Part shown: positions 2,426 to 10,925 of the stretch, piece by piece | Numbering within the stretch: position 1 is the stretch's first letter | Layout of the letters: each line of letters starts with the position of its first letter | Source: an uncultured archaeon | GTDB taxonomy: Archaea; Asgardarchaeota; Thorarchaeia; Thorarchaeales; Thorarchaeaceae | Direction of reading: 5' to 3' | Length of the DNA: 10,970 nucleotides | Assembly (NCBI GenBank): GCA_964648855.1 | Contig: CAZYLT010000036.1 | Location: forward strand, 1-10,970 | Translations under genes and position numbers: made by a program | Notes under the pieces: generated by a model | The model's input: only the letters and a program-made list of their open reading frames with translations | Told to the model about the DNA's origin: nothing | Databases searched by the model: none

Positions 2426-4426
2426 CTATTGTAGAAGATTGCGAGCTCTCAAGACAACATTCTCACTTGTAAAACCAAAGCTCTCAAACAAGTCTTCATA
2501 GGGGGCTGAGGCTCCGAATCTTTCGATAGAGATGATGTCTCCTTCATCTCCTACCCATTTCTGCCATCCTTGCGCGACTCCAGCCTCCACAGCAAGTCTG
2601 GCCTTCACATTATCGGGTAGAATTGATTCTTTGTATGCAGGGTCTTGCTTCTCAAAGATTTCCCAGCTCGGAAATGAAACTACTCGTACGCTATAGCCTT
2701 CATCTGCCAGAGCTTCTGCTGCAGCAGCTATTAACGGTACTTCGGAACCAGATGCCATGAGAATAATATCAGGATTCTCTCCAAAATCCTTCAATATGTA
2801 TGCTCCCTTTTGTAACCCCTTTGGCGAGTTGTATATGGACCTATCTAGAGTAGGTACATTCTGGCGAGTCAACACAATGGTAGTTGGATCATCCCGTCTC
2901 TGAATTGCTACACGCCATGCTTCTGTGACCTCGTTTGCATCACCTGGTCTAATGACTACCATATTCGGCATTGCACGAAGAGAGGCAAGGTGTTCAATGG
3001 GTTGATGCGTGGGGCCATCTTCTCCTAGGCCAATGCTGTCATGGGTGAAGACCCAAATGCTGGGGTACCCTGAGAGGGCAGATAATCGAATGGCAGGTCT
3101 CATATAATCCAAAAAGACGAAAAACGTCCCACAATAGGGTAACAAACCTCCATGGACCGCCATGCCATTAACGATACCTCCCATGGCATGTTCCCTCACC
3201 CCGAAGTAGATATTTCGTTCTGCAGGAGAATCTGCTTGAAAATCCTTACTTCCTTCTATCCATGTCTTATTTGAGCCGGTGAGATCAGCTGACCCACCAA
3301 TCATCTCTGGAATTCTTGATGTGATTACATCAAGCGTCTTTCCGGAGGCCGCTCGTGTTGCGATTCCCTTCTCATCAGGGTCAAAAACAGGTAGGTCATT
3401 ATCCCAATCACCAGGCAATCTCCCTTCTAGGCGTCTCCTGAATTCAGCTGCCTTTTCCGGGTGTTCCTTCTCATAGTTTGAAACCAGTAGGTTCCAAGTC
3501 GACTGCAGCTCCTCTCCCTGTTCCAGTGCCTCTCTAAAATGTTCTAAGACCTCATCAGGAACATGGAATTTTTCCTGGGGCCAACCAAGATTGTTCTTTG
3601 CTCCCTTGAGTTCCTCCTCGCCGGCTGGCTCACCATGGGCCTTGGCGGTGTCTTGCCGGGTAGGCAATCCGTACCCAATATGAGTTCTGCACATGATGAG
3701 GGAGGGTTTACTGTTTTCCTTCGCCTCCCGAATTGCAGCATCTATTGCTTCCACATCATTTCCATTGTCAACCTTCTGCACATGCCATCCATATGCCTCG
3801 AAACGCTTACCCACATCTTCAGTGAAAGTCAGGTCGGTACTACCGTCGATGCTTATGTCGTTGTCATCATATAGCATTATGAGTTTGCCGAGCTTGAAAT
3901 GACCCGCAAGGGATGCTGCCTCCGAAGAGATGCCCTCCATTAAGTCACCATCAGTCACTATTGCATACGTATAATGATTGACAACATCATATTCCCCCTC
4001 GTTGAATACCGCCGCCAAATGTTTTTCTGCGACCGCCATTCCTACAGCATTGGCAAATCCCTGTCCTAGGGGCCCAGTTGTCACCTCAACTCCGGGTGTA
4101 CAAAATGACTCAGGATGTCCCGGGGTATTGCTTTGCCATTGTCGAAAATCCTTGATATCATTCAATGAAACGTCATATCCAGTAAGATACAGTAGAGAAT
4201 AGAGCAGCATTGAACCATGCCCTCCTGACAAGACAAATCGGTCACGATCGGGCCATTCTGGGTCTTTTGGATTGAATCTCAGATGGCGTTTCCATAGTGT
4301 ATACGACATTGCTGCTGCGCCCATGGGCATTCCTGGATGTCCAGAATTCGCCTTTTGCACAGCATCTGCTGAAAGAAATCGAATCGTGTTAATGGCTTTC
4401 TCATGAAGTGGGTCTTTTGAATTCAT
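2426..4426 (-). CDS. tkt: Transketolase, single-chain bacterial type (EC 2.2.1.1)
   Basis: 666 aa with [42 protein letters not shown], the ThDP motif DGDLMEG...[35 protein letters not shown] and FGASAP. GGAGA RBS upstream. Confidence 0.98.
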
Positions 4427-4611: not shown

Positions 4612-5547
4612 CTACTTTCTGAACTTGACAACGAGGGCGATAACTACTACGACAACAATTCCGCCACCAATCAACAACAGCATTGTATTATCAGTGGGGA
4701 GGACGCCACCCGACTCAATTCCCAAGGTGGGATCATATTCGAGTGTTTCATTGCCAAAGTATTCGAAAGCCAAGTAGATTGCATTTCCTGCCTGCTGACC
4801 TGCAGCCTCACCATAGCTGGCCTTCACTTGAACCGTGTTCTGTGCGGCGAGAGCAGTTTCTGCGTATTCCATGTAGGCTCCATTGAACTGAAACTCGGTA
4901 CCAGTATGTCCGAAATCACCAGGGTCTCTAGACCCTTGTTCCTCTCCGTGAGCGCTCTCACTAATCGTGAATTGCAAAACGAGGATTGAGTCATCGTATG
5001 TCCAGTTCCAACTGTCAATGATCACATCGAACTTCAACTCGTTGGAATTTTGTACATCCATGTGAACCCGTATCTGTACCATTACATCAAAGGATGCCAT
5101 GTCAGGGATATTGCCTACCTCGCCTCCAGACCTGGGATTATGTTCTGTGGTGCTTGTGAAGTTGAAATGTATCGCCGTAACATTTCCATCTTCAGTTTCA
5201 GTTTCGAAACCGCTGAAGTCCCATCCTGTTGAGGGTAACGCAAATGGTGAACCTACAATCTGGTCCTCACTTGCATTGTATATTCCATCAGAATTAGTAT
5301 CGTTCGCTTCAAATAACTTGACAAAAATCAAGTGAAAGTCGGAATCAGGGCTATCTGGGTCCCACCAATGAAAATGAGGAACCTCTCCCGCGCCTGTCAC
5401 CTTCATCTCGATCTCATCAGTTGTCAGCCTGACCATTCCGGCTGTCTCTTGATACTGAATGCCATTTCCTTGTGCTGAAACCATTGGCACTGCTATAGCC
5501 AGCATGGCTGCGACAAGGGATGCAATCAAAAGTTTTGATTTTTTCAT
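4612..5547 (-). CDS. Secreted, C-terminally membrane-anchored acidic surface (glyco)protein of unknown function
   Basis: Start re-assigned to ATG 5547, which opens a Sec signal peptide (MKKSKLLIASLVAAMLAIAVPMVSA). The ectodomain is beta-rich and acidic, with a DxNxDG loop (DTNSDG) and six N-x-S/T sequons. It ends in a hydrophobic helix plus a KFRK tail. Confidence 0.85.
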   Translation of the reverse strand: MKKSKLLIASLVAAMLAIAVPMVSAQGNGIQYQETAGMVRLTTDEIEMKVTGAGEVPHFHWWDPDSPDSDFHLIFVKLFEANDTNSDGIYNASEDQIVGSPFALPSTGWDFSGFETETEDGNVTAIHFNFTSTTEHNPRSGGEVGNIPDMASFDVMVQIRVHMDVQNSNELKFDVIIDSWNWTYDDSILVLQFTISESAHGEEQGSRDPGDFGHTGTEFQFNGAYMEYAETALAAQNTVQVKASYGEAAGQQAGNAIYLAFEYFGNETLEYDPTLGIESGGVLPTDNTMLLLIGGGIVVVVVIALVVKFRK

Positions 5548-5578
5548 TGTGTAATCACTATACAATGCATATTGGTAT

Positions 5579-5588
5579 CTATATATAG
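5579..5588 (-). promoter_or_regulatory. TATA box of the surface-protein gene
   Basis: CTATATATAG lies 32-41 nt upstream of ATG 5547. This is almost the same spacing as the TATA at 10281-10290 relative to ATG 10250. Confidence 0.6.
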
Positions 5589-5974
5589 CAACTATTAGAA
5601 AAACTGGGGTTTATTAATAAAATATAGCAATGATAAAACTCCAAAATAAAAATAAAATTTTATGAAGGCTTTAAAATATTTTGAAAACCATCTAATAATC
5701 GATTTGCCTTAAATCTTAACCCATTATGGTCAAAAGGACTTGTCTAGGAAAATACTCCTTCTGACCATCGCTAGGTATGACCAACTCGATTCTTTCAGTT
5801 AGACCGTTTGCATAGATTATTCCTCGGAATAAACTAAACCGTAGTGAGGGTGCCAAAGGCATCTCACAACTCGCTTACTCTTTAAGACAGCTCGTTTTTG
5901 AATTTGTAGCAATTCTTTTATGTCACACCCGTGTAGATTTCTTACAATTCGCGTAATATGGAGGATTTGTCAAA

Positions 5975-8255: not shown

Positions 8256-8648
8256 CTACTTAACTCCGATTTTCTTCTCATGCTTCCATAAGCCATGAAT
8301 GTTGCAATACGCTGTTGACATCAGTTTACCCGGTTTGTCCGTCTTGAACGCAAAAACTGCATGGGGCTCACAATACACAGTGCTAGTGTCTGCTCCCTTG
8401 ACTGAGGCTCCATGTGCGTCAAAGCTCATGTAACCTATCTCGTATGGAAATTTCTCCCCTTCAGGCCAGAAGAACAAGTCCATCCATTTTATGTGATGTG
8501 CAGTAGTGTTCGGATGTGAAATCTCTTTCCCTACTTGCACCTTGACATGGAAAACCTCGCCTTTCTTGACTTTATCTGGGGCATCGATTACCGGGACATG
8601 TTTTTCATTCTTCCAATCATCTGTTTGTAACCAATTCTTATCTGCCAT
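8256..8648 (-). CDS. Class II SORL-domain protein (neelaredoxin / 1Fe superoxide reductase-like)
   Basis: Non-heme iron ligand motifs EKHVP, HPNTTAHHI and CNIHGLW are present. There is no N-terminal desulforedoxin domain. AGAGGT RBS upstream. Confidence 0.93.
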   Translation of the reverse strand: MADKNWLQTDDWKNEKHVPVIDAPDKVKKGEVFHVKVQVGKEISHPNTTAHHIKWMDLFFWPEGEKFPYEIGYMSFDAHGASVKGADTSTVYCEPHAVFAFKTDKPGKLMSTAYCNIHGLWKHEKKIGVK

Positions 8649-8762: not shown

Positions 8763-10250
8763 CTAGCTAGAAATTTCATCCATGTGGGTTAGTACATCTC
8801 TACCCTTTTCTGTTAGAGCATAATAGACTCTAGATGTCTTTCGTATAGTCATTTCCTTTCGCGTCTTTACTATTAGTCCATTGTCTCGAAGCTCATTGAG
8901 ATGTTGATATACACTCGGAATGCTAATCTCAACATCATACTCTTCGTTCAATGTCTTCCATATACCGTATCCATATGATTCCCCGCTATAGAGAATTTGC
9001 ATGACGAGGATTTTTGTTTCCCCCAGTTTCATAGTGAATCTCGGGCCCTCGACTCTTCGAATTATATGCTTTAGATCCTCTCTGCTGCTGACAAATGATT
9101 TCGCAATATCTGGGTACTTCAATCCCGTACTGGTAATGACGCAAACCACAGTATCCGATGCAGCAATTTCTCCAGACTCCACTAACTGCTTGAGAGCTGC
9201 TATTGTAGTTGCTGATGCCGGTTCAGCAAACACGCCCTCTGTCTTTGCAAGTGTTCTAACGGCATTGAGAATCTCTTCATCTGAAACAGCTAGAGCCATC
9301 CCCTCTGATTCCCTTAAGGCTTCCAATGCAAGCTCTCCACAGGATGGATTCTTAACTCCGATGTCGATTGCTATGGTGCTTACAGATGGCGCAGGAGAAA
9401 TGCTAGTGTTCTTTTTGAATGCATCAACTATAGGAGAACACCCCTTAGCCTGCACACCAAGCAATCTGGTATCTGTTGCGCCAATAAGTCCCGCCTGAAC
9501 CAACTGCCGTAGGCCTCTCTGGGCCATTGATAGATGACCCCCGCTTCCCATAGGTACTACTAACCAGTCAGGCGTACTCCATCTCATCTGTTCAATGATT
9601 TCAAATGTGGTTGTTTTGATTCCCTCCAAGAAGTAAGGGTTTGATGACATTATGTTATGTCCGGCACCATGTTCCTTAGTCGCTTGTCTTATTGCCGCTT
9701 CATAGTCTGACACCGTTTTCACATCCGCAGCATATGCCAGTATCTGATAGAGCTTTCCTACATCCACATCTCCTCTGCTGGGAATATATACAGAACATCT
9801 CATAGATGCTCGGGCTGCATAGGCGACTACCGATGCTGCAAGGTTACCAGTAGACCAGCAATATACCTCACCCACGCCCGCCTGTCTAAGGCCGCTTATC
9901 TCAACTGCAGTCCCTCTGTCTAGAAATGAACCTGTTGGGTTGGTTGTTTCATCCTTCAGGTACAGATTATCAAGTCCCAAGGTTGATGCTAGCCTATCAG
10001 CTTTATGAAAGGAGGTTCCTCCTTCTCCCAGTGTCACTTTTTCATCAGTGCTTTCCAGAGGTAAGAAGCTGCGATATCTCCACATCCCCAAATCGAATGC
10101 ATCCTCCATCTCCCCTTGCGCTTTCTCCTTGGTTTCCTCTATATCATAGTAAATGAGAAGCAGTCCCTCGCATCTTGGGCAACTGCCTAACTGTGCACTT
10201 ATGGAGGTTTCATAGCCACATCTTGTACATATGGCACGAGGGACTGACAT
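8763..10250 (-). CDS. Threonine-synthase-like (PLP fold type II) protein lacking the Schiff-base lysine, fused to a C-terminal PadR-like winged HTH; probable transcriptional regulator
   Basis: N-terminal Zn ribbon (CTRC...CPRC), WRYRSFLP, TLGEGGT, LKDETTNPTGSFLDRG (K->L), STGN, PMGSGG, EPASA and TSTGLK. Residues from about 407 to 495 form a PadR-type wHTH: ILYSGESYGYGIWK...SVYQHLNELRDNGLI...RVYYALTEKG. Confidence 0.88.
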   Translation of the reverse strand: MSVPRAICTRCGYETSISAQLGSCPRCEGLLLIYYDIEETKEKAQGEMEDAFDLGMWRYRSFLPLESTDEKVTLGEGGTSFHKADRLASTLGLDNLYLKDETTNPTGSFLDRGTAVEISGLRQAGVGEVYCWSTGNLAASVVAYAARASMRCSVYIPSRGDVDVGKLYQILAYAADVKTVSDYEAAIRQATKEHGAGHNIMSSNPYFLEGIKTTTFEIIEQMRWSTPDWLVVPMGSGGHLSMAQRGLRQLVQAGLIGATDTRLLGVQAKGCSPIVDAFKKNTSISPAPSVSTIAIDIGVKNPSCGELALEALRESEGMALAVSDEEILNAVRTLAKTEGVFAEPASATTIAALKQLVESGEIAASDTVVCVITSTGLKYPDIAKSFVSSREDLKHIIRRVEGPRFTMKLGETKILVMQILYSGESYGYGIWKTLNEEYDVEISIPSVYQHLNELRDNGLIVKTRKEMTIRKTSRVYYALTEKGRDVLTHMDEISS

Positions 10251-10258
10251 TACATATC

Positions 10259-10293
10259 AAACCTATATATAGGCTCAAGATTATATATAGTTT
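10259..10293. promoter_or_regulatory. Two interlocked, oppositely oriented BRE-TATA elements (divergent promoter)
   Basis: Plus strand AAACC-TATATATA (10259-10271) faces the ECF gene. Minus strand GAAAC-TATATATA (10294-10282) faces the ThrC-like/PadR gene, with the TATA 32-39 nt upstream of its ATG. Confidence 0.6.
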
Positions 10294-10295
10294 CA

Positions 10296-10341
10296 GCTCA
10301 TTGTGTGAGTGAACCAGTGGGCTACTAGAATGCTCATTGTG
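10296..10341 (+). repeat. 10-bp direct repeat GCTCATTGTG x2 (36-bp period), candidate operator
   Basis: Exact copies at 10296-10305 and 10332-10341. The second copy runs into the GGAGA RBS of the ECF gene. Confidence 0.5.
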
Positions 10342-10355
10342 GAGACGAACGCACC

Positions 10356-10925
10356 TTGAAATACCGTAGAAACAGTTTCAATACATCCCTATTTGTAGCC
10401 CTAACAGCAGTCATGTCTGGATTAGTGACAGTTTCCACCGCCATAATCGCAATTCCATTTCCAACTAGTACTGGCTATCTGAATTTTGGCGATACACTGG
10501 TGATGATTTCAGCCATGCTTCTTGGTCCCCTTGGGGGATTCATTGCAGGCGGTCTGGGGTCTGCTCTCGCTGATGTCTCGTTGGGTTATCTCGCCTTTGC
10601 ACCTCTTACATTCGTCGTCAAAGGCGCTGAGGGTTTCCTGGTAGGGCTGATTTCCAAAAGAACCAATGAATTCGGAAAACTCGGTGCTCGTGATCTAGCC
10701 GGACTCATTATTGGCGGAATTATCATGATGCTAGGGTATTTCATTGGTGAGGTTTTTCTTTTTGGTTATGAAGCAGCCTTAGCCGAACTCCTATTCCTTA
10801 ACTGGATTCAGGCTGTTTCCGGAATAGTTGTCGCTGCCTTGGTAGGACCTAAAGTTCGGGAATATCTGGTACAATCAACGGGTAACAATGGGTCACTACA
10901 AGCTGAAGAAGACGTAGAAGGGTGA
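10356..10925 (+). CDS. ECF transporter S-component (substrate-binding subunit), HmpT/PdxU-like group
   Basis: 189 aa with 5-6 TM helices, AxxxA-type helix 1 and the signature IPFPTSTGYLNFGD...LLGP..G...GGLGSALAD...GY...AP.T...KG.EG. TTG start with GGAGA 10 nt upstream. Confidence 0.9.
   Translation: MKYRRNSFNTSLFVALTAVMSGLVTVSTAIIAIPFPTSTGYLNFGDTLVMISAMLLGPLGGFIAGGLGSALADVSLGYLAFAPLTFVVKGAEGFLVGLISKRTNEFGKLGARDLAGLIIGGIIMMLGYFIGEVFLFGYEAALAELLFLNWIQAVSGIVVAALVGPKVREYLVQSTGNNGSLQAEEDVEG

Follow-up and report, generated by a model that had tools for sequence, protein, structure and literature searches.

A gene of an uncultured Thorarchaeaceae archaeon encodes what appears to be a threonine synthase turned into a regulator. 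It lies on the minus strand of a 10,970-nucleotide stretch of DNA (the window: contig CAZYLT010000036.1 of assembly GCA_964648855.1, in its full length). Its product has the fold of threonine synthase (ThrC), but the lysine that forms a Schiff base with pyridoxal 5'-phosphate (PLP) is replaced by leucine, and a PadR-type winged helix-turn-helix (wHTH) is added at the C terminus. We propose that the protein is a one-component transcription regulator and not an enzyme: a reversible sensor of PLP, or of vitamin B6 more generally, that controls the neighbouring gene for B6 uptake. We put the probability of this reading at about two in three.

The Schiff-base lysine is lost and the pocket is kept

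The original prediction, made from the letters of the window alone, assigned leucine to residue 110, the site of the PLP lysine. The assignment is correct. The plus strand reads TAG at 9921-9923, which gives CTA, a leucine codon, on the minus strand, and the motif is NPTGSFLDRG. In HMMER alignments Leu110 lies opposite the lysine of NPTGSFKDRG in the solved threonine synthases 2zsj, 6cgq and 2d1f. A base-call error, judged unlikely from the outset, is now harder still to defend. CTA is two substitutions away from AAA and three from AAG, and the same codon is found in an 81%-identical orthologue from an independent assembly (L008). We also took the 120 closest database homologues and matched the motif in 117 of them. 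Position 110 is isoleucine in 100 of these, leucine in 17 and lysine in none; because all 117 carry Ile or Leu, the loss of lysine does not look like chance. All 120 proteins are about 495 residues long and combine a PALP with a PadR domain, and those with names come from Thor-, Loki-, Hod-, Odin-, Sif- or Promethearchaeota.

What is left of the active site? The other cofactor elements, said in the original prediction to be retained, were all found: N136 in STGN, PMGSGG at 233-238, EPASA at 343-347 and T373 in TSTGLK. Among 49 family members (45-81% identity), N104, P105, T106, G107, F109, D111, R112, N136, G235, G237, E343, P344 and T373 are invariant. In the columns that contact the cofactor, the fused proteins are as conserved as unfused ThrCs. 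The reading frame is intact as well, with all 495 codons open. Comparison with the L008 orthologue by the Nei-Gojobori method gave a ratio of nonsynonymous to synonymous substitution (dN/dS) of 0.14 overall, 0.13 in the PALP domain and 0.08 in the wHTH, values that indicate strong purifying selection on the fusion gene. The invariant pocket residues and the low ratio in the PALP domain support the earlier suggestion that catalysis was lost selectively while the pocket was kept, as opposed to decay into a pseudogene. As for a substitute lysine, a comparison of fused with unfused representatives revealed none specific to the fused family; K378 is equally conserved in real ThrCs.

Domain architecture and predicted structure

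The family layout, about 470-500 residues long, consists of a zinc ribbon, a ThrC-fold domain and a C-terminal PadR wHTH, and the window protein has all three. The ribbon is also found in unfused archaeal-type ThrC (the NF006050 alignment begins at residue 7). Pfam scores PALP (PF00291) at 218.7 bits over residues 72-373 and PadR (PF03551) at 50.2 bits over residues 416-488, against a gathering threshold of 27. An AlphaFold2 model built from 49 relatives has a mean predicted local distance difference test score (pLDDT) of 84. In this model a low-confidence linker (about 376-409) joins the ThrC-fold body to the winged helix, in which three helices (411-421, 427-437 and 444-456) are followed by a beta hairpin (strands 460-467 and 473-479) and a last helix (481-494). 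The top Foldseek match of the ThrC-fold body is 2zsj, the Aquifex ThrC (TM-score 0.87 by target, rmsd 1.9 Å).

The protein is predicted to dimerise. ESMFold2 gave a homodimer score of 0.82, against 0.00 for the best of three controls; 20 of 30 proteins solved as one-chain pairs come up to this mark, and so does 1 of 23 solved as single chains. Homodimer runs agree in at least 76% of contacts, with a partner pLDDT of at least 81. The predicted interface lies in the ThrC-like domain and includes D163 and Y168. The homodimer pass may reflect likeness to ThrC dimers that are already solved.

Loss of the lysine accompanies the winged helix

Does the lysine disappear where the wHTH is present? From a search of 1.84 billion representatives we sorted the best 150 by wHTH tail and by residue 110. 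Lysine is absent from 66 of the 68 tailed representatives scored at this position (Leu 22, Ile 18, Val 8, Met 5, Arg 5, Thr 4, Lys 2, and Ala, Phe, Asn and Ser one each) and kept in 74 of the 78 scored without a tail. The earlier idea that lysine loss co-segregates with the fusion thus holds. The two tailed representatives with lysine are P0169 and P0185; L026 is another fused form that keeps it. Among the four unfused exceptions, P0249 (306 residues) and P0171 (362 residues) are short fragments, P0142 stops 34 residues past the PALP domain and P0258 matches PALP only up to profile position 262 of 295. P0171 and P0142 nest next to fused sisters in the tree described below. We take all four to be truncated or frameshifted calls.

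Position 110 is the column that best separates fused from unfused proteins (total-variation distance, TV, 0.97). The next most discriminating are D296, D163 and Y168. Position 296 is Asp or Glu in 64 fused representatives, as against Ala, Ser or Gly in unfused ones, and aligns with an alanine of 2zsj; Asp296 may have a role in ligand binding. Phe207 aligns with the arginine of the NPYRIEGQKT segment in 2zsj, 6cgq and 2d1f. This position is Phe, Leu, Tyr or Ile in fused forms (hydrophobic in most), and it is Arg in only 24 of 74 unfused archaeal-type representatives.

A tree of the PALP domain was built with FastTree after removal of column 110 and was left unrooted. In it 66 of 67 fused rows fall on one side of a single branch with support 89. 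The window protein belongs to a group of 60 rows with hydrophobic residues at position 110; the Arg forms and both Lys-retaining fused forms make up a well-supported group of eight. The deeper clusters have named members in Njord-, Odin-, Baldr-, Hel- and Lokiarchaeota as well as in Bathyarchaeia, and all are called 'threonine synthase'.

A different ThrC fusion also turned up in the search. P0217 and P0225, both ThrC homologues with the lysine and about 610-620 residues long, have a C-terminal LeuA allosteric/dimerisation domain (PF08502), so that the catalytic residue is retained in this architecture. P0218, P0233, P0244, P0250, P0252 and P0259 are of similar length and keep the lysine.

Neighbouring genes point to vitamin B6

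The gene divergent from the fusion gene encodes a 189-residue membrane protein, the S component of an energy-coupling factor (ECF) transporter. Its sole relative in the PDB is HmpT (4hzu_S, E 1.9e-13). Its family, PF07155/COG4720, includes PdxU and PdxU2/HmpT, which together with P5PA, from another family, are the only characterised prokaryotic B6 transporters (PMC9997740). HmpT binds and carries pyridoxamine (PMC4860826).

The pairing recurs widely. In a sample of 201 genomes of the Asgard phylum we located 84 fused genes, in 83 genomes of many families. Of the 84, 63 have a PF07155 gene no more than 500 bp away, and 68 have one within 1.2 kb. Loci of Thor-, Hod-, Sif- and Promethearchaeia show the pairing. 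A further three of the 84, from three families, adjoin pdxS-pdxT, both genes confirmed by Pfam. The order in L020 is regulator-pdxS-pdxT, co-directional; in L021 and L022 the regulator is divergent.

One more locus, L040 (G048:C242, 756-3126), has a PF07155 gene directly upstream of pdxS and pdxT, head to tail on one strand, with a 16-bp palindrome, ACTTTAATATTAAAGT, upstream of the three genes. This arrangement is, on gene order, a further link between the PF07155 family and vitamin B6.

How does the host obtain its B6? The window genome (G000, in which the window is contig C36) measures 3.11 Mb in 62 contigs and is 94.6% complete. PdxS and PdxJ had no match in it, nothing passed the PdxT cut-off, and a search for Phos_pyr_kin (PdxK/ThiD) came up empty. 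Because these were not found, the host appears to depend on imported B6, that is, to be a B6 auxotroph. Three EcfT genes are present. Across the sampled genomes, PF07155 is found in 160 of 201 and PdxS in 32; PdxS was found in none of the 43 from the window's own family.

Other genes also keep company with the fusion. The gene 114 nt downstream of the regulator encodes a superoxide reductase (Desulfoferrodoxin, PF01880, 113 bits; window 8256-8648, minus strand); it has the same place in L008, L009, L012 and L013, and rubrerythrin and SufBC/D genes are nearby in relatives. In relatives a conserved protein of about 425 residues with no Pfam family is encoded beside the S-component gene or with a single gene between them (L008 3879-5159, L009 3893-5170, L012 2287-3567, L013 3419-4696); the window contig ends before this point. 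A 666-residue open reading frame (ORF) at window 2426-4426 (minus strand) occupies the position of L008 and L012 genes with Transketolase_N, pyr and C hits in Pfam. Split transketolase genes are common in archaea.

A palindrome between the divergent genes

The fusion gene and the S-component gene share an intergenic region of 105 bp (10251-10355). It contains a perfect 12-bp palindrome, CCTATATATAGG, which is a candidate operator. The exact sequence occurs once in the 3.1-Mb genome, against 0.27 expected; with up to two mismatches there are 2 matches in the window, against 0.26 expected. In L008, L009, L012 and L013 the orthologue is likewise preceded by this 12-mer, at a distance of 9-24 nt. 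Copies with one mismatch occur in L010, the pdxST-linked L021, G011 and G096. Elsewhere in the 9-13-kb loci of those relatives it is essentially absent. The palindrome occupies the same place in relatives whose proteins are 48-55% identical, L021 among them. A second, weaker box, ATTATATATAGT, lies nearby, and a AATATATAA-type box recurs 6-8 nt upstream of the palindrome in L008, L009, L012 and L013. The second box may be a TATA box or a second operator.

Is the palindrome simply a generic TATA box? We reject this in part: TATATATA occurs 18 times in 3.1 Mb against about 107 expected, and the 10-bp core, CTATATATAG, has only three copies in the window genome.

The other two core copies have settings of their own. 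One is held in TCTATATATAGC (window 5578-5589), 13 nt upstream of a TTG start. The gene that follows (4612-5565, minus strand) encodes 317 residues with hydrophobic N- and C-terminal stretches and no Pfam match. Its L008 orthologue has GCTATATATGGA at the equivalent place, and for this reason the TCTATATATAGC site is probably a promoter element. The third copy, at C5:35107, falls in a gap between ORFs.

Scanning the whole window genome for the palindrome gave five one-mismatch copies, two of them within ORFs. None of the five is beside an obviously B6-related gene, as judged from neighbours without a Pfam check. In G041, G007, G025, G096 and G011 the scans gave no more matches than a reversed-pattern control. 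The regulon appears to be local, or else the strict pattern is too narrow.

Fused genes of the Arg type (subfamily B) may use another site. In four genomes of family f7 (L032, L033, L037 and L038) an inverted repeat of the TAAAG-N6-CTTTA type lies about 30-50 nt upstream of pdxS, and it may be the operator of these regulators. As a motif shared by pdxS and the fused genes of family f7 we rejected it: no convincing copy was found upstream of the fused genes.

Table 1. Positions of the features of the window, with the basis for each
Feature	Position	Strand	Basis or remark
Lys-less ThrC-fold/PadR fusion gene (P0001), 495 residues, stop included	8763..10250	-	ORF and translation
N-terminal four-Cys zinc ribbon (C8/C11/C24/C27)	10170..10229	-	4 Cys invariant in 49 family members
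Proposed ligand sensor: ThrC-fold domain of PLP fold type II (residues 72-373)	9132..10037	-	Pfam PALP
Codon CTA, Leu110, site of the PLP Schiff-base lysine	9921..9923	-	ORF translation and alignment to solved ThrC
Asp296, acidic residue specific to the family, in the stretch opposite IATAIKIGNP of solved ThrC	9363..9365	-	TV 0.88
C-terminal PadR-type wHTH, residues 416-488	8787..9005	-	Pfam PF03551
Perfect 12-bp palindrome, candidate operator, possibly also core promoter element	10262..10273	.	12 nt upstream of ATG
Second, weaker box	10280..10291	.	18 bp centre to centre from the palindrome
ECF-transporter S component (PdxU/HmpT type), divergent, proposed regulated target	10356..10925	+	Pfam PF07155, 115 bits

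The threonine synthase label

The original prediction warned that automated pipelines would call this gene thrC, and they do: the fusion protein scores 217 bits against TIGR00260 (thrC), above the cut-off of 167.1, and NCBI and JGI name its homologues 'threonine synthase'. We regard this as misannotation that follows from passing the cut-off, a score that is no proof of activity. Two other models place the protein outside their limits. It scores 291.1 bits against NF006050 (cut-off 303) and 265 bits against NF004170 (PRK05638, a 'threonine synthase' equivalog; cut-off 421). The NF004170 alignment covers 4-441 of 442 positions, wHTH tail included. NF004170 therefore seems to have been built on a fused subfamily, since the host's real ThrC paralogues stop at its position 358-364. 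Its cut-off was passed in none of 14 control genomes. The window protein is thus outside the equivalog, and the enzyme name is unsupported by the sequence of the fused family.

The genome does have real candidates for the enzyme, as a check for a canonical thrC elsewhere revealed. One Lys-bearing paralogue, L002 on contig C11 (NPSGSFKDRP), passes the TIGR00260 cut-off of 167.1 with 178.7 bits, and a second (L003, NPTLSFKDRG) lies on C5.

A proposed mechanism and its alternatives

How might such a protein work? With the Schiff-base lysine gone and the cofactor pocket kept, the ThrC-fold domain would bind PLP, or another phosphorylated B6 vitamer such as pyridoxamine 5'-phosphate (PMP), reversibly and non-covalently. 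Occupancy of the pocket would then report the free B6 pool. A dimer, probably formed through the ThrC-like domain, would bring a pair of PadR winged helices to the palindrome within the shared 105 bp. Each of the two boxes could be the TATA box of a promoter that reads across the other box, so that protein bound to either would block both promoters. Because the sites overlap core promoters, the most likely logic would be that, when B6 is plentiful, the regulator represses both itself and the gene for B6 uptake. In relatives its target would instead be pdxS-pdxT. PLP or PMP is most simply the ligand in view of what the pocket has kept and lost: the phosphate loop, the Asn that contacts O3' and the Thr at the ring nitrogen, roles that we take to be those seen in ThrC structures, are retained, the NPYR arginine is gone (F207) and the acidic D296 is new.

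Several points weigh against this reading. We infer ligand binding, DNA binding and regulation from comparative genomics. Thirteen of the 84 fused genes, two of them at contig ends, have neither a PF07155 nor a pdxS neighbour; in family f7 such genes adjoin a DUF4147/MOFRL gene and GINS. The sampled genomes are related, and neighbour counts overstate independence, although the pattern still spans many family codes. About half of the sampled genomes from the window's own family have the S component without the fused gene, and the regulator is therefore dispensable. The substrate of the S component is itself deduced: Pfam names PF07155 'riboflavin transporter', and HmpT Glu41 and His84 align with Asp46 and Lys89 in the S component of the window, which may differ in specificity. 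The palindrome is TATA-like. A core-promoter role is possible for it, because one CTATATATAG copy (window 5579), upstream of another gene, is an apparent promoter element. Finally, in G041 and G007 the scans placed no trans site of the palindrome close to the distant PF07155 genes.

Suppose that the protein is a regulator but that its ligand is not B6. The sensor could respond to an amino acid or pathway intermediate (O-phosphohomoserine, threonine or homoserine), possibly as an external aldimine on permanently held PLP, as GABA does in GabR, and the transporter would carry that compound or another vitamin. The descent of the sensor domain from threonine synthase fits this view, as does the remodelling of the pocket at the fusion-specific D296, L137 and M242. 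By general PLP chemistry, PLP without the lysine has a free aldehyde able to capture an amine. The ligand-contact residues of HmpT are, moreover, not identical in the PF07155 neighbour, a predicted B6 carrier. The neighbourhoods speak the other way: the genes that recur are PF07155 and pdxS-pdxT, and no conserved neighbour belongs to the threonine or methionine pathway. O-phosphohomoserine in particular appears disfavoured. The arginine of the N-P-x-R segment contacts the substrate phosphate in solved ThrCs, and in the window protein it is Phe207. We consider a non-B6 ligand unlikely, at something like one chance in five.

That the protein is still an enzyme, working without a Schiff-base lysine or with another residue in its place and with the wHTH as an accessory, seems to us very improbable. 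The highly conserved pocket, the TIGR00260 score and the fused forms that keep lysine (P0169, P0185 and L026) could be read this way. No single chemistry, however, fits a position 110 that can be Leu, Ile, Val, Met, Thr, Arg, Ala, Phe, Asn or Ser; the fusion has no conserved lysine of its own; canonical ThrC paralogues reside in the same genome; and loss of the internal-aldimine lysine abolishes or cripples turnover in fold-type II enzymes. Only the missing lysine speaks for a fault of sequencing or assembly or for a pseudogene in decay, and these can be set aside given the two- or three-base difference from lysine codons, the identical codon in L008, the intact frame with its dN/dS of 0.14 and a trait common to hundreds of homologues.

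Relation to known regulators and enzymes

The regulator proposed here resembles three known systems, each in part. The first is ThrC (EC 4.2.3.1; TIGR00260, NF006050/PRK08197; 2zsj, 6cgq, 2d1f and 1uim). The regulator shares with it the fold (35-40% identity, in addition to the TM-score given above), the archaeal-type N-terminal zinc ribbon and the motifs NPTGSF-DR, STGN, the Gly-rich phosphate loop, EPAS and T-x-x-GLK, and its predicted dimer forms through the same domain. It differs in having Leu for the Schiff-base lysine and Phe207 for the NPYR arginine, in the family-specific D163, Y168 and D296, and in the added PadR wHTH. Its neighbours are B6 genes and not genes of the threonine pathway, and the same genome encodes real ThrC paralogues as well.

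The closest functional parallel is with PdxR and the other MocR regulators (GabR, TauR), in which a sensor domain derived from a PLP enzyme is likewise fused to a winged helix. Reconstructed bacterial PdxR regulons contain pdxST, pdxK and the transporter gene pdxU (PMC5320631); genes of the pdxST and pdxU types also adjoin the fused archaeal family. The parts are different, however. In MocR/PdxR proteins the wHTH is N-terminal and of the GntR type, and it is joined to a fold-type I aminotransferase-like domain that retains the PLP lysine. In the window protein the wHTH is C-terminal and of the PadR type, and the ThrC-like domain is of fold type II and lacks the lysine. Judged by its domains, it is an analogue of bacterial PdxR and not a homologue or a member of MocR, a subfamily reported absent from Archaea (PMC5320631).

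With the PadR family (PF03551) the protein shares a wHTH that scores above threshold and a palindromic candidate site in its own promoter region. Typical PadR proteins have about 110-180 residues and dimerise via a C-terminal helix. In the window protein a 400-residue pseudoenzyme carries the wHTH as its tail, and the model dimerises through the pseudoenzyme domain. The candidate site is also unlike the PadR operator ATGT-N8-ACAT. A literature search, with subscription-only papers outside its scope, found no account of a ThrC-fold/PadR architecture or of an archaeal B6 regulator.

Implications

A broader proposal, to which we give somewhat better than even odds, is that these proteins form a widespread family of archaeal vitamin B6 regulators, present in many Asgard lineages and also under Bathyarchaeia labels. 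Removal of the lysine would have made a ThrC into a reversible PLP/PMP sensor, and fusion to PadR would have followed. The family would control PdxU-like uptake or pdxST, having converged on the role of PdxR from unrelated parts, and most Asgard archaea would be B6 auxotrophs living on regulated uptake.

One consequence concerns annotation. Hundreds of 'threonine synthase' entries and one NCBIfam equivalog probably name a regulator as an enzyme; if so, metabolic reconstructions of Asgard archaea over-count thrC.

If the proposal is true, the family fills the gap of the archaeal B6 regulator and shows that a PLP-responsive transcription factor has arisen from a PLP enzyme a second time, independently. 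Through the simple step of deleting the Schiff-base lysine, a cofactor once bound covalently would become a reversible ligand, and this makes the family a clean and testable case of pseudoenzyme evolution. For the organisms themselves, the contrast between PdxS (32 of 201 genomes) and the PdxU-like S component (160 of 201) suggests that many Asgard archaea rely on B6 made by their partners.

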